DNA of 64,000 nt, from assembly GCA_028278105.1 (NCBI GenBank), contig JANQEX010000043.1:1055-65054 (forward strand), written 5' to 3'. Positions 15,436-60,310 of the stretch are shown piece after piece. The DNA is from Alphaproteobacteria bacterium. Its GTDB lineage: Bacteria; Pseudomonadota; Alphaproteobacteria; UBA9219; RGZA01. The position numbers and the translations under genes are program-made. Numbering within the stretch: the first letter of the stretch is position 1; the number at the start of each line of letters is the position of its first letter. Below the pieces are notes generated by a model, which did no database searches, was not told the DNA's origin, and worked only from the letters and a program-made list of their open reading frames with translations.

Positions 15436-15620
15436 GAACCGAGTCGCACAGAACCCCGTCACCCCCGCGAAGGCGGGGGTCCACGTTTTAAAACTTTTTA
15501 TTTTTGATAAAGGATCTGTAGCGTGGATGCCCGCCTTCGCGGGGGTGACGGTTCTTCTTGTAGAATGTGCCGGCCCAAAGAGCCCTTGGCATAACAGCAG
15601 TTTCCGCATGAAATTTCCCG
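15424..15620. mobile_element. MITE-like element copy 1 (28-bp near-perfect terminal inverted repeats GTCACCCCCGCGAAGGCGGGGGTCCACG)
   Basis: Arms at ~15458..15485 and ~15524..15551. Conserved flanks aaaaatctcatgaa... and ...ttcttgtagaatgtgcc...gcatgaaatttcc shared with the copy at 17170. Confidence 0.6.
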
Positions 15621-17049: not shown

Positions 17050-17060
17050 CAGGGAGGTGT

Positions 17061-17126
17061 GGAGGTTCGGAGGTTCAAAGGTTCGGGGGTGCGAGGGTAC
17101 GGGGGTTCGAAGGTTCAAGGGTTCAT
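17061..17126. promoter_or_regulatory. Array of GGTTCGA/GGTTCAA direct repeats immediately upstream of a minus-strand gene start
   Basis: ggaggttcggaggttcaaaggttcgggggtgcgagggtacgggggttcgaaggttcaagggttc. The same motif array recurs upstream of the icmL-like operon at 39383..39440. Confidence 0.4.
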
Positions 17127-17169: not shown

Positions 17170-17350
17170 ATACCAAAAATCTTATGAAATGACTCACGGC
17201 TTGCACGAACTGTCACCCCCGCGACGGCGGGGGTCCACGCTTTAAAACTTTTGTTTCGATGGTTTTCCAGCGTGGCTGCCCGCCTCCGCGGGCATGACCT
17301 TTTTTCTTGTGGCATAGGTCCGTTCATAAGGCCGTTGGCATGATTTCCAG
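17170..17350. mobile_element. MITE-like element copy 2
   Basis: ataccaaaaatcttatgaaatgactcac...gtcacccccgcgacggcgggggtccacgc...gcgtggctgcccgcctccgcgggcatgac...ttcttgtggcat... Confidence 0.6.
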
Positions 17351-22557: not shown

Positions 22558-22699
22558 AAGGCCAGTCCTTCTCTATCTCCCGATACGGTTTCCACAGCTA
22601 CCAAACCCGCTTTAACGAAGGCTTAACGCGCGTTAACCACGCCTCGCCGCGTTGCTTTTAAAGCCCCTCCCTCTGGAAGAGGTAATTGGGGGGCATGGG

Positions 22700-22768
22700 G
22701 GGTCGCAAGGGTCATGAGGGTCTTCTTTTGTTGACCCTGATGACCCTTCCGGCCCTCTCGACCCTTAC
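22700..22768. repeat. REP-like hairpin of the GGGTCATGAGGGTC family
   Basis: aagggtcatgagggtcttcttttgttgaccctgatgacccttccggccctctcgaccc. Relatives at 49036..49105, 60085..60180 and 60243..60310. Confidence 0.6.
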
Positions 22769-30243: not shown

Positions 30244-30480
30244 AACAGTCTCATGAAGTGACTCATCCCGAAAGCACGGACCGTCACCCCCGCGAAGGCG
30301 GGGGTCCACGCTTATAATCTTCTGATTTATTTGGATTTAAGCGTGGATGCCCGCCTCCCTGCTTCGCCTTCGGCTACGCAGGGCGCACTTGCAAAAAGGC
30401 CCGGCGTAGCTTTAGCGAAGACGGGTCGCGGGCATGACGACTCTCCCTATGGGATAGATCAGTTTACAAGACCGTTAGTA
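30244..30480. mobile_element. MITE-like element copy 3 (same TIR, with a ~70-bp insertion inside the right arm)
   Basis: acaaacagtctcatgaagtgactcat...gtcacccccgcgaaggcgggggtccacgc ... gcgtggatgcccgcctcc[insert]gcgggcatgacg. Confidence 0.55.
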
Positions 30481-37922: not shown

Positions 37923-38648
37923 CTATTCCCCCTGATGCCAGCCCTGCCGGACGCCGAGTCCGGCGGCCAGTTCCTCCCAGCCGTCGATGGCCACCCCTTC
38001 GGGATGCTTGAGGGTGGAGGCGCGGATCAGGGTCAGTTGCAGGACCGACCGCTTATGGGCCACTTTCGATCCCGCCTGATAGGTTGTGATGATCGGCACC
38101 TGCACCACCCAGCGGTCGGTGCCGAAATAGGGACCCTCCAGCACCACCACGGCGCCGTCGGTGGCGATGGCGGTGAGCACCTGCTGGTTGTTCTTGATCT
38201 TGTCGAGGCGGCCATACCGCAGATAGGCGCGGGCGAACTTGTTCCAGGCCCGCCGGGTGAAAAGGTGACGGGCGTTCAGCAGGCGCTCGTCGGCGTTGTT
38301 GAAGCCGAAGGTCAGCACCTGCGTCACGACATTCATGGCCATGTTGATGATGGCGGTGTGGGTCAGGTTCGGCTCGTCCAGCGCATGGATGTACTGCACC
38401 CGCTCCGGCAGGGCGTCATGGCCCAGCACCACCAGGTGGTGATAGATGCGCGGCGCGAAGGCGATGGCCGTCAGGATCGTCGTGCCCATCAGGATGGCGA
38501 TCAGGTAGCTTTGCAGCACCACCAGCGCCCGGAAAAATTTCGCCATGCCGGGGGTTGAGCGCGGCTCGTTCTTGGTGGCGGCGAACAGAAGATGCGCCAC
38601 CTGCGTGGGCGAAAGCCGCGTATGCACCTCCGGCCGCTCGGCCTTCAT
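37923..38648 (-). CDS. DotI/IcmL-like (VirB8-fold) paralogue
   Basis: TM LVVLQSYLIAILMGTTILTAIAFA followed by a periplasmic domain. Start uncertain (Mets at 38768, 38648 and 38546). The 38768 start would overlap the upstream gene. Confidence 0.4.
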   Translation of the reverse strand: MKAERPEVHTRLSPTQVAHLLFAATKNEPRSTPGMAKFFRALVVLQSYLIAILMGTTILTAIAFAPRIYHHLVVLGHDALPERVQYIHALDEPNLTHTAIINMAMNVVTQVLTFGFNNADERLLNARHLFTRRAWNKFARAYLRYGRLDKIKNNQQVLTAIATDGAVVVLEGPYFGTDRWVVQVPIITTYQAGSKVAHKRSVLQLTLIRASTLKHPEGVAIDGWEELAAGLGVRQGWHQGE

Positions 38649-38716
38649 CGGCGCCAGTTTCTTCGGGGCGAGCGCGACCGGCGCTTCCGGCGGAGTGGGA
38701 AGCGTGGGCGAAGGGC

Positions 38717-39379
38717 TCATCGTCGCAAGGGGGGCCGGAAGGCGGCGTTGTCCTGGCCGATAATCCACTGGCCAAAGGCGATGCCGTCAGGGATTTCGAG
38801 GAAGTTCACGCGGTCCACGCGCACCTGCAACACGCCGCGCACCGGCTGCGGCGCATCCTGCCCGTCATAGACGATGCTGATGGGCATGCTGAGATACCAC
38901 GAGTAGGTGCCGTTCTTGCCCACGCCCTTCTTGAGCACCTGCGGCGCGCCCTCGATGCGAAGCTGGCTGACCAGCTTCTTCTCCTCGATGGCCTCGATCA
39001 GGCGGGATTCCTTCAAGGCGCTGTGGAAGTCGGTGCGGCCGGTCAGGGTGAAGCGGCTGTTCACCCCGTCCAGATGCGTGCGGTAGTTCAGGTAATCCAT
39101 CTGCATGACTTCGCGCGCGGTCTTGGCGGTCCAGGTAATCACCTGGTCGTCGGCGAAGTAGGGCTCGTTCACCGGCTCGATGGGCATGATCCGCCCGTCC
39201 ACATTGGTGGCGAAGAACACATGCTTCACGCTGGCGGTCAGCACCAGAATGATGACGATGCCGATCAAAACCGCGATCACCGCGCCTTGCACCAGCGCCA
39301 CCTTCAGCAGGCCGCGGTAACCGTCCCGGTAAAAACTGTTCCGGATCATCACGGTTTGTATGGCGTCGCGCTGGTTCAT
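38717..39379 (-). CDS. dotI: DotI/IcmL-like T4BSS inner-membrane protein
   Basis: N-terminus ...MIRNSFYRDGYRGLLKVALVQGAVIAVLIGIVIIL recalled from memory as the IcmL/DotI motif. First gene of the long minus-strand operon. Confidence 0.5.
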   Translation of the reverse strand: MNQRDAIQTVMIRNSFYRDGYRGLLKVALVQGAVIAVLIGIVIILVLTASVKHVFFATNVDGRIMPIEPVNEPYFADDQVITWTAKTAREVMQMDYLNYRTHLDGVNSRFTLTGRTDFHSALKESRLIEAIEEKKLVSQLRIEGAPQVLKKGVGKNGTYSWYLSMPISIVYDGQDAPQPVRGVLQVRVDRVNFLEIPDGIAFGQWIIGQDNAAFRPPLRR

Positions 39380-39382
39380 TGG

Positions 39383-39440
39383 GAGAGGTTCGAGGGTTCG
39401 AAGCTGCGTAGGTTCGAGGGTTTGTGGGTTCGAGGGAGGG
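39383..39440. promoter_or_regulatory. GGTTCGA direct-repeat array upstream of dotI operon start
   Basis: gagaggttcgagggttcgaagctgcgtaggttcgagggtttgtgggttcgaggg. Same motif as at 17061..17126. Confidence 0.4.
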
Positions 39441-39502
39441 TTACGCCTGTTCTCAAGCCCCGGACGTCATTCTCCCCGCAGGCCCGCGCACCCTCGTACC
39501 CA

Positions 39503-39805
39503 CGAACCTTCGAACCTAATTAAATATCGTTACCGAGTGATTAACTTCGAAAGGTTCGAAGGACCGGAGGGACGAGGGTTCGAAGGAAAAACAAGGCCTG
39601 ATTTCGAAGAAGAATCTTCTTCGTCCCTTCGAACCTCCGAACCTTCGAACCTAATTAATATCGCTACCGAGTGATTAACTTCGAGAGGTTCGCAGGTGCG
39701 GAGGGACGAAGGTTCGAAGAAAAAACGAGGCGGAGCCACGAGAAACAAGGCCTGATTTCGAAGAAGAATCTTCTTCGTCCCTTCGAACCTCCGAACCTGC
39801 GAACC
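39503..39805. repeat. Two tandem copies of a ~136/167-bp unit with internal palindromes
   Basis: Each unit: cgaaccttcgaacctaattaa(a)tatcg(t/c)taccgagtgattaacttcga...ggagggacga(g/a)ggttcgaag...aaggcctgatttcgaagaagaatcttcttcgtcccttcgaacctccgaacct. Unit 2 carries a 15-bp insertion. Confidence 0.75.
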
Positions 39806-39810
39806 TTGTT

Positions 39811-42517: not shown

Positions 42518-42710
42518 GAGATTCTGTCCTTCTCATCATGAAAACGGAACCGTTTTACCCGTCCCGTCCCCGCCCGTCACCGGATTCTCATGCCGCGCCG
42601 CAACGCAAGGCGGTTGGAATTTGTTAAAACCTTTGGTAGGAGCTAGAATCTGGTCTTGTGAATCCCCGGCTATTTCCAGCCCCCAGTTCCCGGATCCTGG
42701 CCCCTTTCCC

Positions 42711-43295
42711 ATGTCCGACACATCCGGCCCCTCCCCTCCCGACGATCCCGAAAAGCGTGATTTTATCTTCATCACCGCGGGCGCGCTGGGCGCGGTCGGC
42801 GCCGGGACGCTGGCCTGGCCTTTTTTGGCCTCGCTGGGGCCCGCGGCCGACACGCTGGCGCTCTCCACCACCGAGGTTGACGTCTCGAAGATCGCGCCGG
42901 GGCAGGCCATCACCGTCATGTGGCGCGGCAAGCCGGTCTTCATCCGCCACCGCACCGGGGCCGACATCAAGGCCGCGACCGCCGTTGACGGCGATTCCGC
43001 GCAATTCAACGCCCTGCGCGATCCGCAAACCGACGCCGCGCGCACGGCGCAATCCAAAATCAACGGCAAGCCCGCGCCGGAATGGCTGGTCATGGTGGGC
43101 GTCTGCACCCATCTGGGCTGCATCCCCCAGGGGCAGAAACCGGCCGACAGGAAAGGCGATTTCGGCGGCTGGTTCTGCCCCTGCCATGGATCGAGCTACG
43201 ACACGGCCGGACGCATCCGCAAGGGACCCGCACCGAAAAATCTTGCCGTGCCGCCCTATGTTTTTCTTTCCCCTGGCCGGATAAGGATTGGATGA
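42711..43295 (+). CDS. petA: Ubiquinol-cytochrome c reductase iron-sulfur (Rieske) subunit
   Basis: Rieske boxes CTHLGC and CPCHGS. Start at MSDTSGPS (ATG at 42711). Confidence 0.9.
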   Translation: MSDTSGPSPPDDPEKRDFIFITAGALGAVGAGTLAWPFLASLGPAADTLALSTTEVDVSKIAPGQAITVMWRGKPVFIRHRTGADIKAATAVDGDSAQFNALRDPQTDAARTAQSKINGKPAPEWLVMVGVCTHLGCIPQGQKPADRKGDFGGWFCPCHGSSYDTAGRIRKGPAPKNLAVPPYVFLSPGRIRIG

Positions 43296-43554
43296 GTGAA
43301 AAACGACGTGTGAAGAGTGACAAGGTGAAGAGTGAAAAGTGGAAAGCGGAAAACGAACGGCGTCATCCTGGAAACCGCCGCCGGCGGTTATCCAGGACCT
43401 CTTTCCCTTAAAAGCACAAGATTCCGGATAAGGGCTCGCCTCCGCTCGCCCTTTCCGGAATGACGGTTTTGAGACAGGCCCCCAGGCTCCTTCTTTCCGC
43501 TTTCCACTCTTCACTCTTCTCTTTCCACTCTGTCACCCAAACCGCCCCGACCCC
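43296..43554. repeat. Structured intergenic element between petA and petB (long imperfect inverted repeats flanking internal hairpins)
   Basis: Left arm gtgaagagtgacaaggtgaagagtgaaaagtggaaagcggaaaa. Right arm ttctttccgctttccactcttcactcttctctttccactctgtcac. Internal hairpins tcctggaaaccgccgccggcggttatccagga and ttccggataagggc...gccctttccggaa. Confidence 0.7.
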
Positions 43555-44832
43555 ATGAACGACCCCCCGGCCAAAAATCCCACGGGCATTCCTTTTCTCG
43601 ACTGGATCGACGCGCGCCTGCCGATCTTCAGCCTGATGCAAAAGGAATACGGCGCTTATCCCACGCCGCGCAATTTCAACTATCTGTGGAATTTCGGCGC
43701 CATCGCCATGGCGCTGATGTTCGTGATGATCGGCAGCGGCGTGATCCTGGCCATGCACTACACCGCCGACACGGAACTGGCCTTTAATTCCGTCGAGCGC
43801 ATCATGCGCGACGTCAATTATGGCTGGCTGATCCGCTATATTCACATGAACGGCGCGTCGATGTTTTTCTTTGCCGTTTATGTGCATATTTTCCGCGGGC
43901 TTTATTACGGCTCCTATAAGAAGCCGCGCGAACTGTTATGGATTCTTGGCGTCAAAATCCTGTTCCTGATGATCGCCACCGCTTTCATGGGCTATGTGCT
44001 GCCCTGGGGACAGATGAGCTTCTGGGCCGCCACCGTCATTACCAATCTCGTTTCGGCCGTGCCGTTCGTGGGCGAGCCGCTGGTCAACTGGATCTGGGGC
44101 GGCTTCTCGGTCGGCAATCCCACGCTTACCCGCTTTTTCGCCCTGCATTACCTGCTGCCTTTCGTGATTCTCGCTCTGGTATTCCTGCATGTGGCGGCGC
44201 TGCATGTCTGCGGCTTCAACAATCCTCTGGGCATCGACGCAAAATCCCCGAAGGATACCGTGCCTTTCCATCCCTATTACACGGTGAAGGATCTTTTCGC
44301 CCTTTGCGTGTTCCTTCTGCCCTGCGCCGTCCTCGTCTTCTGGATGCCAAACGCCCTTGGCCATCCTGATAACTACGTCCCGGCCAATCCCATGGTCACG
44401 CCCGCGCATATCGTGCCGGAATGGTATTTCCTGCCTTTCTACGCCATCCTGCGCTCTTTCACGGTCGACATCGTGGTGCCGTTCTCGCAGGTGGTGCTTG
44501 TTTCGTCCAAGCTGGGCGGCGTGATATTGCTGCTGGCGTCCATCGGCGTACTGTTCGCCCTCCCCTGGCTCGACCGCTCGCCGGTGCGCAGCGCGCGCTA
44601 CCGCCCCATCTATCGCGTGCTGTTCTGGATTCACCTCCTGGCCTGTCTTGGCCTGGGCTGGCTGGGGGCGCAGCCGGCGGAAGGCATCCATGTTCTTGCC
44701 AGCCAGATTCTGACCGCCTGGTATTTCCTGCATTTTCTTGTGTTCCTGCCGCTTTTGCCGAAGATCGAAAAATGTCCGCCGCTCCCGCCCGGCATTCATG
44801 AATATCTTCTTTCGAAGAAGAGGGAGGCTTGA
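43555..44832 (+). CDS. petB: Cytochrome b
   Basis: 425 aa, ...[26 protein letters not shown]..., a typical cytochrome b. Confidence 0.9.
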
Positions 44833-44834
44833 TC

Positions 44835-45599
44835 ATGCGCCATCTTCTTCCCTTTCTTCTTCTGCCCACCCTTTGCGGCGTACCGGCGCTTGCCACGGAA
44901 GCGGCGCCGCTCCGCTCGCCGGAAGGCGGCTGGCCGCATCACGGTGTTTTCGGCGCCTATGACAAGGCCGCGCTGCAACGCGGCTTTCTGGTGCACAAGC
45001 AGGTTTGCTCGGTCTGCCATTCGCTGAATCTCGTCGCCTACCGCAATCTTGCCGCGCTGGGTTATAGCGAAGACGAGATCAAGATTCTTGCCGCGCAAAA
45101 AACGGTCACCGGCGGCCCGGATGACGACGGCAACATGTTCCAGCGGCCCGCCCGCCCCTCCGATTCCTTCGTGCCACCCTTTCCCAACGACAACGCGGCG
45201 CGCGCCGCCAATAACGGCGCGCTGCCGCCGGACCTGTCCCTGATGACCAAGGCACGGCCGGGCGGCGAGGATTATGTCTATTCCCTTCTCACCGGCTATG
45301 ACGCCGCGCCGCCGCATGACCTGAAATTGTACCCCGGCATGTCCTACAATCCCTGGTTTCCGGGGGGGCAGGTCGCCATGCCGCCGCCTTTGGCCTCGGA
45401 CGATCTGGTTGCCTACGGCGACGGCACGAAGGCCACGCGCGAGCAGATGGCAAGGGACGTGACCCAGTTTCTTGCCTGGGCGGCCGAGCCGCATCTGGAA
45501 GACCGGCACCGCATCGGCATTCGCGTGATGCTGTATCTGTTGCTGATGTGCGGCGTGCTGTATATCGCCAAGCGCCGCCTCTGGCGCAGGGTTCACTGA
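44835..45599 (+). CDS. petC: Cytochrome c1
   Basis: Signal peptide, heme site CSVCHS, C-terminal TM. AGGGAGG RBS 8 nt upstream of ATG 44835. Confidence 0.85.
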   Translation: MRHLLPFLLLPTLCGVPALATEAAPLRSPEGGWPHHGVFGAYDKAALQRGFLVHKQVCSVCHSLNLVAYRNLAALGYSEDEIKILAAQKTVTGGPDDDGNMFQRPARPSDSFVPPFPNDNAARAANNGALPPDLSLMTKARPGGEDYVYSLLTGYDAAPPHDLKLYPGMSYNPWFPGGQVAMPPPLASDDLVAYGDGTKATREQMARDVTQFLAWAAEPHLEDRHRIGIRVMLYLLLMCGVLYIAKRRLWRRVH

Positions 45600-48949: not shown

Positions 48950-49035
48950 CTGCTATAACCGATTCCAGAAATATTTTTGCTGCATCAGGAAACCCGCCCC
49001 TCTTCCCACAAGGAAGAGGCAAGGCGGAACGTGAC

Positions 49036-49105
49036 AGAGTCACAAGGGTCATGAGGGTTTTTGTTTACGACCCCCCTTGACCCTTGTGACCCTCATGGCC
49101 CTTTC
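49036..49105. repeat. REP-like hairpin (GGGTCATGAGGGT family)
   Basis: cacaagggtcatgagggtttttgtttacgaccccccttgacccttgtgaccctcatggccc. Confidence 0.55.
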
Positions 49106-49141
49106 GCAAAATCCTGTTTCTTTACTCCCTTCGGTCAGGCC

Positions 49142-57690: not shown

Positions 57691-57876
57691 ATACCAAAAG
57701 TCTTATGAAATGACTCATCGCGTCACCCCCGCCCCCGCTTTTCCGCCTCCGCAAGCTTCGGCGTGACGAAAAGGTAAAACCTCGGCGTAGCCGCAGGCGA
57801 AGCCGGGCGCGGGGATCGGCTTCGGCGGGGGCCCATCCTTTTTTCTGATTTCTGATTTCCGGCTTCTGATTTCTGA
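57691..57876. mobile_element. MITE-like element copy 4 (variant: conserved left flank, divergent core, ttctgatt tail) abutting tRNA-Ala
   Basis: ataccaaaagtcttatgaaatgactcatcgcgtcaccccc... then ...ttttttctgatttctgatttccggcttctgatttctga. A related tail module occurs at 20440..20510. Confidence 0.5.
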
Positions 57877-57952
57877 ATGGTGGACCCTATCGGGATCGAA
57901 CCGACGACCTCCACAATGCCATTGTGGCGCTCTCCCAGCTGAGCTAAGGGCC
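57877..57952 (-). tRNA. tRNA-Ala (anticodon GGC)
   Basis: Reverse complement GGGCCCTTAGCTCAGCTGGGAGAGCGCCACAATGGCATTGTGGAGGTCGTCGGTTCGATCCCGATAGGGTCCACCA. G3:U70 pair, anticodon loop AUGGCAU, CCA encoded. Confidence 0.85.
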
Positions 57953-58017
57953 CTTGATCCAGAGGCGTTTTATCGCGGCTTTTTGCGCATCTGGCAAGCT
58001 CTTTTCTTGCGCCGCGC

Positions 58018-59704: not shown

Positions 59705-60310
59705 CGGAAAAACTGCAAGCTATAACCTCTTTAAACCGGAACTCCCCTCCCCTTGCCCGCTTTCGCTAAAGCTGCGGCGAGGTCCTTGGAGAAAGCTCGT
59801 CCGCCGAAGCTCGCAGAGCGGAAGCGGAAGGGAGAATGCGGCTTTATTCCCCTCCCTCTGGCCCGCCTTGACTCCCCTCCCCTTGAGGGAGGGGTTGGGG
59901 GTGGGGTGAAGCGTTGGTTTTTTCAAAGCCTCGGCATTTACGCTATGGGAAACCGGCGGACCCCACCCCTTGATCCCCTCCCTCAAGGGGAGGGGAAATT
60001 CATCCGCCGAGGCTCCGGCGGGTCCTTATAAGGAAGCTTGTCCGCCGTAGCTCGCAGAGCGGAGGCGGAGAGGGGTTCGGGAGGGCCCGTGAAAAGGGTC
60101 GAGGGGGTCATAAGGGTCAGGAGGGTCAAGGACCCTTTTGACCCTTACGACCCTTTATGACCCTCAGTTATCCCTCCCCCTTCCCCCTCCCAAAGGGAGG
60201 GGGATGTGATTTTTATTCCCCTTCCCTTGTCCGCCTTCGCCGAGGTCATGAGGGTCTTTTTGCAGACCCCATGGACCCTTCCGGCCCTCACGACCCTCTT
60301 GATTGAACCT
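59705..60310. repeat. 600-bp intergenic nest of REP-like repeats between rnd-like and kpsF
   Basis: Three CCCCTCCC-N4-GGGAGGGG hairpins. Two ~35-bp direct repeats gtccgcc(g/t)(a)agctcgcagagcgga(a/g)gcgga. GGGTC/GACCC hairpins at 60085..60180 and 60243..60310. Confidence 0.7.

Follow-up and report, generated by a model that had tools for sequence, protein, structure and literature searches.

The stretch of DNA considered here (hereafter, the window) comprises 64 kb of a metagenome-assembled contig from NCBI that derives from an uncultured alphaproteobacterium, and it includes the operon for the cytochrome bc1 complex. The genes are petA, coding for the Rieske iron-sulfur subunit (194 aa, 42711-43295, + strand, with matches to the Pfam families UCR_Fe-S_N and Rieske), petB, coding for cytochrome b (425 aa, 43555-44832, + strand, recognized as an open reading frame, ORF, and by its 100% identity to NCBI protein P0001), and petC, coding for cytochrome c1 (44829-45599, + strand, from ORF and Pfam evidence, with a likely ATG start at 44835 after GGGAGG). 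In a collection of 15 billion proteins, no relative of this cytochrome b above 75% identity is found. The stop codon of petA (TGA) is located at 43293-43295 and petB starts with the ATG at 43555, there being no in-frame start further 5'; the gap between both genes (43296-43554) measures 259 nt. An earlier note on this DNA had described a structured element of ~260 bp at the petA-petB junction, formed by imperfect inverted repeats of ~45 bp around two internal hairpins, and this description is borne out in all its parts by the anatomy given below. As for the nature of the element, we lean slightly towards a nested palindromic repeat, specific to this lineage, that was fixed in a short spacer, and not a device that evolved for the bc1 operon.

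Starting from the petA side, the gap opens with a single-stranded spacer remnant (GTGAAAAACGACGT, 43296-43309, + strand), unpaired and outside the main helix. Next comes a purine-rich 5' arm of tandem heptamers, GTGAAGA GTGACAAG GTGAAGA GTGAAAA GTGGAAA GCGGAAA ACGAACG (43310-43360, + strand). On the other side of the interior lies a pyrimidine-rich 3' arm with a GC skew of -0.43 (43489-43536, + strand), the reverse complement of the heptamers, which reads …TTTCCGC TTTCCAC TCTTCAC TCTTCTC TTTCCAC TCTGTCAC. The gap closes with a right spacer remnant (CCAAACCGCCCCGACCCC, 43537-43554, + strand) that lacks a Shine-Dalgarno (SD) motif and for the most part does not pair (mean unpaired probability 0.64). 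Tandem Repeats Finder gives a period of 7 for both arms and counts 5.1 copies in the left one (43310-43346) and 4.4 in the right one (43505-43536). The degenerate unit is GYGRARA and its reverse complement, present six to seven times per arm; three such units in a row are matched 7 times in the window against 0.4 expected, every time within the element. The best part of the inverted repeat is 31 nt long with 90% complementarity (43322-43352 / 43494-43524), and from there it continues at lower identity to about 43310-43360 / 43489-43536; the arms are 74-90% complementary with indels. With imperfect arms of 44-48 nt and a total of 227 nt, the terminal inverted repeats and the size are those of a MITE (a miniature transposable element with inverted repeats), of which a length of about 100-400 bp is typical.

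The interior of the element is unique and asymmetric, and contains two hairpins (43366-43397 and 43422-43461) that are inverted copies of one unit (inverted match of 27 nt, 70% complementary) with the consensus CGTCAT-YCC-GGAAA-(GC palindrome)-TTATCC-RG. Unit 1 (43361-43400, + strand) consists of a CGTC tag at 43361-43364, one A and a stem-loop at 43366-43397 (TCCTGGAAACCGCCG / CGGCGGTTATCCAGGA), and can be written as CGTC-A-TCCTGGAAA-CCGCCGCCGGCGG-TTATCCAGGA. A spacer that is richer in AT and contains CTTAAAAGC (43401-43418) separates it from unit 2 (43419-43465, - strand). The hairpin of the latter reads TTCCGGATAAGGGC...GCCCTTTCCGGAA at 43422-43461 and its tag appears on the + strand as GACG (43462-43465), i.e., as CGTC on the - strand, where the unit is CGTC-A-TTCCGGAAAGGGCGAGC-GGA-GGCGAGCCCTTATCCGGAA or, divided in the same manner as unit 1, CGTC-A-TTCCGGAAA-GGGCGAGCGGAGGCGAGCCC-TTATCCGGAA. 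A linker (GTTTTGAGACAGGCCCCCAGGCT, 43466-43488) leads to the 3' arm. In each unit the tag is unpaired and stands 1 nt before the stem, and both tags face outwards; the stems, of ~13-15 bp, are interrupted by a bulge or an internal loop and the tails are CCT and TCT. Judged by its sequence, this inner layer reads as an inverted dimer of a CGTC(A)-tagged palindrome similar to the repetitive extragenic palindromes (REPs), and its units would fall outside the described REP families. The outer layer is best described, by analogy, as a tandem-heptamer foldback hairpin resembling those formed by the STRR sequences (short repetitive units repeated in tandem) of cyanobacteria.

The structure prediction that the earlier note had proposed gives one long hairpin. 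The RNA of the gap has a folding energy of -117.4 kcal/mol on the + strand, compared to -79.0 ± 4.8 kcal/mol for 200 shuffled sequences (z-score of -8.0, with no shuffle as good), and of -131.4 kcal/mol on the - strand (z = -6.2). In a context of 411 nt, the arms pair with a probability of about 0.85 into an outer helix of 44 bp (from 43310:43536 to 43360:43489), in which just one pair is G-U. Together with the two inner hairpins, the helix closes ~227 nt, with its base 14 nt away from the petA stop and 18 nt away from the petB ATG, and the 20 nt that precede this ATG are mostly unpaired (0.64). That a single pair out of 44 is G-U and that both strands fold well agrees better with a palindrome at the DNA level than with a structure selected as RNA. 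No promoter-like or terminator-like site was found within 43296-43554 by a consensus scan, and the sole promoter-like site between 42400 and 43800, based on that scan alone, lies 5' of petA (TTGTTA-17-TAGAAT, 42621-42649, + strand). Thus, the claim that the element must be co-transcribed with the operon is plausible. Rfam at the gathering threshold matches two tRNAs alone in the whole window, and at E ≤ 10 the best match to the gap is a plant miRNA model that scores 19 bits, the cut-off being 140.

The five closest relatives that share the gene order of the window, i.e., a formyltetrahydrofolate synthetase gene (FTHFS, other strand), petA, petB, petC and a tetratricopeptide repeat (TPR) gene (other strand), have petA-petB gaps of 5, 27, 41, 41 and 41 nt. 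An SD sequence (AAGGA) is located in the spacer of four of them, and the nearest relative has the coupled junction of 5 nt. For a comparison that does not depend on the choice of start codons, 72 other operons, namely these 5 and 67 metagenome loci, were measured from the Rieske stop to a Trp codon that is conserved in cytochrome b. Including the window, the median over 73 operons is 64 nt (5-95% range of 45-149 nt), and the window has 307 nt, about twice the maximum of the comparison set (161 nt). The earlier statement that both genes normally lie close together is therefore correct. The element is absent in all five syntenic relatives and among the 72 comparison operons. Since the junction is far shorter in all of these, the element is a lineage-specific gain, the biggest at a site that occasionally receives smaller hairpins, and this junction has taken up palindromes more than once. 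Hairpin-bearing petA-petB spacers of ~60-110 nt are seen in other alphaproteobacterial lineages (loci L156, 2348-2509; L141, 2354-2512; L136, 2422-2536; L202, 2243-2368), and the hairpin in L156 is REP-like and GC-rich (CCCCCGCGAAAGCGGGGG), resembling the REP core of the window.

Other repeats of both kinds are present in the window. REPs carrying a CGTC tag have been defined by that tag (or TGTC/CCTC), a stem of 8-9 bp, a loop of 4-5 nt and a CCA-like tail of 3 nt (Di Nocera et al. 2013, PMC3733652). Canonical members of the CGTC-1 type (CGTC-ACCCCCGC-GAAG-GCGGGGGT-CCA) occur at 15457 (+), 15524 (-), 17211 (+) and 30282 (+), in regions 15457-15550, 17211-17300 and 30282-30308, and the units at 15457, 17211 and 30282 match the published definition of stem, loop and tail. 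Those at 15457/15524 and at 17211 form inverted dimers with outward tags and a similar TTTAAAACTTTT spacer, the first of which folds as a single hairpin (z = -11.3). The pentamer CGTCA is common to these canonical REPs and to the petA-petB units.

Hairpins with arms made of tandem repeats are found at six or more other sites of the window, with z from -2.3 to -8.5. Some are built from the octamer GGTTCGAR (39385-39520, 39548-39656 and 39682-39810, besides a single-armed array at 17053-17124), and others from the nonamer RGGGTCANN (22692-22762, 49030-49106, 60090-60170 and 60236-60302), a pattern with 16 matches in the window against 1.2 expected. The 430-nt gap 5' of icmL (DotI/IcmL; 39385-39810) is full of octamer arrays, with three long hairpins and a tandem duplication of a ~134-nt unit that starts with AATTAA(A)TATCG..GTGATTAAC; an octamer hairpin 5' of icmL is kept in position in the nearest relative (L001, 2654-2727). 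Because repeat hairpins of both types adjoin unrelated genes, they represent a class without operon specificity. The earlier note had named beforehand, as an observation that would speak against a role for the element in this operon, its presence at many loci of relatives with no operon specificity. What is found comes near to it, since the types from which the element is built stand at unrelated genes of the window, but the element itself is single. The suggestion of a selfish REP or MITE in the earlier note is the branch that the sequence supports best, at the level of the class and not of an exact second copy. We think that both layers probably, if only by a small margin over doubt, belong to repeat types that fill the intergenic DNA of this genome whatever the neighboring genes are.

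Several side observations can be mentioned here. Arrays that are pyrimidine-rich in the sense of the mRNA end 3-18 nt before starts without SD sequence at three places (17053-17124; 39387-39436, for genes of the - strand; and 43489-43536), an arrangement that recalls the TAACTGA repeats of Beggiatoaceae and that may be either a feature of translation initiation or a coincidence. Five tandem TTTCTGA heptamers (57842-57876) directly adjoin a tRNA gene (57881-57953, - strand) at its 3' end, with no complementary array nearby. At 59873-59996 there is a perfect inverted repeat of 22 nt (TCCCCTCCCCTTGAGGGAGGGG / CCCCTCCCTCAAGGGGAGGGGA) with arms 80 nt apart, in a repeat-rich gap of 630 nt that also contains two nonamer hairpins. 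Finally, the genes of a Dot/Icm type IVB system (DotI/IcmL, DotH/IcmK and TrbI; 37923-39379) adjoin those of aconitase, FTHFS and the bc1 operon, and the same neighborhood is chromosomal across the whole clade (upstream regions of L001 and L123-L128). Such chromosomal Dot/Icm genes suggest a host-associated lifestyle.

The interpretation that we favor slightly is, then, that of a nested palindromic repeat gained in this lineage and fixed between petA and petB, most likely a tolerated selfish or neutral insertion, because repeats of such kinds fill other gene gaps of the genome. The element would be transcribed within the petABC mRNA and, according to the folding model, its RNA would shut into one hairpin of ~227 nt. 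The single-stranded remainder would be 14 + 18 = 32 nt, within the 27-41 nt of the spacers of four relatives. The C-rich 3' arm would be sequestered, which would leave little naked RNA for the loading of Rho, and the petB start is predicted to remain accessible. We propose that the insertion is tolerated because its RNA folds shut, Rho is avoided and the petB start stays open. Processing or stabilization of the mRNA by the element, as suggested in the earlier note, is possible. A helix of 44 bp with almost only Watson-Crick pairs is the kind of substrate that RNase III cuts, and cleavage of this type may be a side effect of the insertion; another might be a block to 3' exonucleases that stabilizes the petA segment.

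Some results weigh against this interpretation and should be considered together. A second copy of the element, of its heptamer unit or of its REP-like unit is not present elsewhere in the 64 kb, and blastn searches with the element gave no copy in 106 kb of the loci of relatives or in the PLSDB plasmids. The search for other copies that had been advised thus returned recurrences of the building types, within the window, and none of the element. A scan of GTDB with an 18-nt core of the arm gave at least 120 loci; among the matches listed, all are from unrelated organisms, in which the heptamer run alone was matched, and the source genome is not one of them, so the copy number rests on the window. 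There is no target-site duplication, the flanks GTGAAAAACGACGT and CCAAACCGCCCCGACCCC having no direct repeat in common. The stems of 13-15 bp with a bulge, the loops and the tails do not fit the definition of the CGTC REPs. Homology of the inner dimer to the CGTC-1 dimers of the window was tried and not retained: a MAFFT alignment looks suggestive, but the local alignment is within the range of shuffled sequences. The connection with CGTC REPs hence rests on the CGTCA tag and the layout of the dimer, because the alignment is no better than shuffles and the stems are of 13-15 bp. Moreover, the last five codons of petA (43278-43292) are CGG ATA AGG ATT GGA, where the relatives have CGC ATT CGC ATT GGC. 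They are rare, purine-shifted synonyms (usage of 7% for ATA, 6.5% for AGG and 10.7% for GGA) that continue the 5' arm's purine tract within the coding region. In addition, the 5' arm repeats at its inner end (43345-43356) the stretch 43295-43306 in direct orientation (10/12), a match that by eye reaches 12/15 (43295-43309 / 43345-43359). Both features hint at evolution in place or at a constraint, since a simple recent insertion does not predict them.

An origin in place is the first alternative to be weighed. Slippage would have generated the heptamer array from the stop codon, and fold-back or template-switch copying the complementary arm, with the same functional consequences as the insertion of a repeat. 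The register of the heptamers does extend from the region of the stop codon (the heptamer GTGAAAA stands both at 43296 and, as a unit of the array, at 43332), the purine tract starts in the rare petA codons just described, the imperfect direct repeat brackets the heptamer block, and CCGGATAAGG at the end of petA (43277-43286) is exactly repeated in hairpin 2 (43424-43433). Besides, each tandem-repeat hairpin locus of the window has its own unit variants, and heptanucleotide repeats, reported to be the commonest long simple repeat, have been put down to polymerase slippage (Mrazek 2007, as relayed in PMC4679880). On the other hand, the octamer and nonamer families are dispersed, with the same unit at several loci, which points to spreading more than to separate origins; the inner dimer with its CGTCA tags is laid out as the REP dimers of the window; and each of the short matches to flanking DNA is, taken singly, close to what chance would give. 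On this evidence we find an origin in place rather unlikely. The 7-mer CTTCACT, common to the spacers of the relatives and to the 3' arm, was also considered as a sign of such an origin and discarded, ~0.5 chance matches being expected by our estimate. A further alternative is that the element is an adaptive post-transcriptional device: an RNase III site that parts petA from petBC, a barrier to 3' exonucleases for the petA mRNA, or a means of coupling stop and start. The almost wholly Watson-Crick 44-bp helix would suit it, as would its position between the petA stop (14 nt) and a petB ATG that has no SD sequence (18 nt), where four of the five relatives have AAGGA in the spacer and the nearest has the coupled junction of 5 nt. 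Pyrimidine-rich arms 3-18 nt before starts without SD sequence at three sites of the window (17053, 39387 and 43489) point in the same direction, and it has been suggested that the hairpins between hupS and hupL of cyanobacteria stabilize the transcript or couple translation (PMC2670836). However, no relative with this operon has the element, and similar hairpins adjoin unrelated genes. The bc1 complex has, as general reasoning goes, no obvious need for unequal levels of subunit mRNA; starts without SD sequence are common in the window, with an SD-like motif at just 7 of 20 gene starts; and the helix offers just one G-U pair and no homologue for a covariation test. We judge an adaptive device unlikely.

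The earlier note also considered an attenuator, that is, a terminator within the operon. The structure is very stable, its 3' arm is rich in U and C, hairpin 2 is followed by GACGGUUUUG, and the polarity with purines first and pyrimidines last, found in 42 of the 43 hairpins described below, resembles the logic of A-tract and U-tract in bidirectional terminators. Yet the gap has no terminator-like site, none of its stems has a U-tract 3' of it, and what follows the outer helix is CCAAACCGCCCC / CCAAACCG; consequently, the attenuator is unsupported. Furthermore, petB and petC should be needed in amounts equal to petA (again as general reasoning), with no promoter-like site before petB, and we regard termination at this place as very improbable. 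Coding capacity is a weaker candidate. Two small ORFs traverse the repeats of the gap, and one of them, with 39 codons (MSEKRRVKSDKVKSEKWKAENERRHPGNRRRRLSRTSFP, 43292-43411, + strand, from the ORF list), could be coupled to petA through an ATGA overlap of its ATG with the petA TGA, with an AAGGA motif ending 4 nt before this ATG, so as to give a small basic protein. Its composition in K, E, R and S is, nevertheless, that expected of purine-rich heptamers in any frame, neither small ORF matches a Pfam family (best E = 0.09 for the 39-aa ORF), the sequence occurs in no relative, and the ORF crosses the stems of the hairpins. We take this ORF for a side product of the purine-rich repeats and not for a gene, and give very little credit to a functional protein. 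As the window comes from a single contig of a metagenome-assembled genome (MAG) and one sample, the element could also be a fold-back chimera of the assembly. Its arms are, though, imperfect (74-90% complementary, with indels) and enclose a unique, asymmetric interior, the flanks meet exactly at the syntenic petA stop and petB start, and similar elements exist throughout the window, so that an artefact is hardly credible.

Heptamer-armed hairpins are not restricted to this organism. The loci with the arm motif, among the matches listed, belong to Planctomycetota, Verrucomicrobiota, Acidobacteriota, Armatimonadota, Bacteroidales and a gammaproteobacterium from Saanich Inlet. At least 16 of the at least 120 loci have a complementary run within 400 nt of the heptamer run, forming a long hairpin. 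The same 8-kb loci contain at least 37 hairpins in 873 kb, 31 of them with a period of 7 and with quite different heptamer units; one such hairpin is in a gammaproteobacterium. The frequency is about 4-5 per 100 kb in the window and in these motif-selected loci, and alphaproteobacterial bc1 loci taken without such selection (380 kb) gave no hairpin of this kind. The arm rich in purines or G is the 5' one in 34 of 35 hairpins of the listed loci and in all 8 of the window (42/43), a polarity that is identical on both strands and of which no description was found in the literature; a literature search with the string of the arm motif returned irrelevant matches alone. Examples are L056 (340-520), L021 (6760-6930), L086 (2640-2760), L010 (2290-2480), L075 (4990-5220), L111 (5670-5840) and L116 (3120-3460), which have varying units and some of which enclose REPs or other hairpins. 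In L116 the heptamer arms surround a GTAG-tagged REP, the same nesting as in the petA-petB element.

We put forward tentatively, and with more doubt than conviction, that the outer arms belong to an undescribed foldback class shared by several phyla, with arms in which units of 7 nt, at times of 8-9 nt, and of nearly any sequence stand in tandem and pair with their reverse complement, the arm rich in purines or G always at the 5' side on both strands, and the ability to enclose REP dimers. If true, such a class would imply a specific generating mechanism or a shared function at the RNA level, for which tunable bidirectional termination or control of translation would be candidates, and the petA-petB element would be one instance inside an essential operon. 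As a separate observation from these loci, a conserved motif of ~36 nt (GCGGAAAGCTGAAAGTGGAAAGCGGAAAGCCCGGAA) appears on many contigs of two MAGs, CAWGNL01 (L009, L011, L020, L052, L100, L121 and L122) and JAPLCU01 (Armatimonadota; L014, L063, L071 and L110). In at least two of these loci (L020 and L110) it lies behind a homologous gene, after its stop codon, and it looks like a multi-copy element of its lineage.

The known picture of bc1 function is left unchanged by these results. What they indicate is that a tightly packed and essential respiratory operon can hold a self-folding insertion of 227 nt between genes of its subunits, which makes the element a natural test case of how hairpin repeats avoid polarity and preserve the translation of the downstream gene. 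They also suggest that heptamer-armed hairpins, known as STRR in cyanobacteria, have a much wider spread than described. Moreover, these hairpins seem to have a constant, strand-symmetric polarity and can nest REP dimers, which would join simple-sequence repeats and REPs, so far treated as separate classes.

Among the known systems, the intercistronic stabilizers, such as the REP between malE and malF of Escherichia coli or the puf hairpin of Rhodobacter capsulatus, can block decay in the 3'-5' direction and set the ratio of upstream to downstream mRNA. The present element shares with them a stable hairpin between genes of one operon, but they act where unequal amounts of the subunits are needed. 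The foldback (FB) transposons of Drosophila have long terminal inverted repeats made of short tandem subrepeats, at kilobase scale and sometimes with transposase genes; inverted arms of tandem units around a variable middle are a likeness of architecture alone, with no kinship implied. Closer to our case, the STRR heptamers of cyanobacteria have units such as CCCCAGT, TTGGTCA and CAACAGT, and Vioque reportedly found them, in 1997, inside the gene for the RNase P RNA. In several species they can form a hairpin between hupS and hupL (PMC2670836). As in the petA-petB element, units of 7 nt in tandem can give there a hairpin between genes that are transcribed together and code for subunits of the same redox enzyme. 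The differences are the unit (GYGRARA), the phylum and the REP-like dimer enclosed here, besides the fact that STRR units are abundant genome-wide and the unit of the element is found at one locus in 64 kb. Direct repeats of the heptamer TAACTGA have a patchy distribution in Beggiatoaceae, Cyanobacteria and Bacteroidetes, and form intergenic arrays just 5' of starts that have no canonical ribosome-binding site (MacGregor 2015, PMC4679880). The intergenic heptamers of the element, shortly before a start without ribosome-binding site, are comparable. Nevertheless, TAACTGA is one fixed direct heptamer, of which a single indirect repeat has been reported in BOGUAY (PMC4679880), whereas the array of the element has another unit and is paired with its complement.

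With regard to the inner layer, REPs have been divided into superfamilies with GTAG and CGTC tags, the latter mainly alphaproteobacterial, with no dedicated transposase reported and mostly present as inverted dimers between unidirectional or convergent genes (PMC3733652). The unpaired end tag, the inverted units with a spacer of ~20 nt, the alphaproteobacterial host and the unidirectional genes of the element agree with this description. REP dimers are sometimes located within longer palindromes, as CGTC-1 of H. neapolitanus and GTAG-15 of A. variabilis (PMC3733652), and here a dimer also lies inside a longer palindrome, with CGTC-1 units in the same window, although the enclosing palindrome is formed by tandem heptamers. 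REPINs are two inverted REPs that are non-autonomous and mobilized by REP-associated tyrosine transposases (RAYTs) (Bertels and Rainey 2011, PMC3116915); as characterized to date, they are GTAG-tagged, RAYT-associated and present in tens to hundreds of copies per genome. The element resembles them in having two inverted REP-like units with a spacer, in folding as one long hairpin and in its intergenic position, and differs in its CGTC tags, a type without known dedicated transposase. Hence, the element is a new form of two kinds already known, the REP dimer and the STRR-like heptamer hairpin, at an unusual site.

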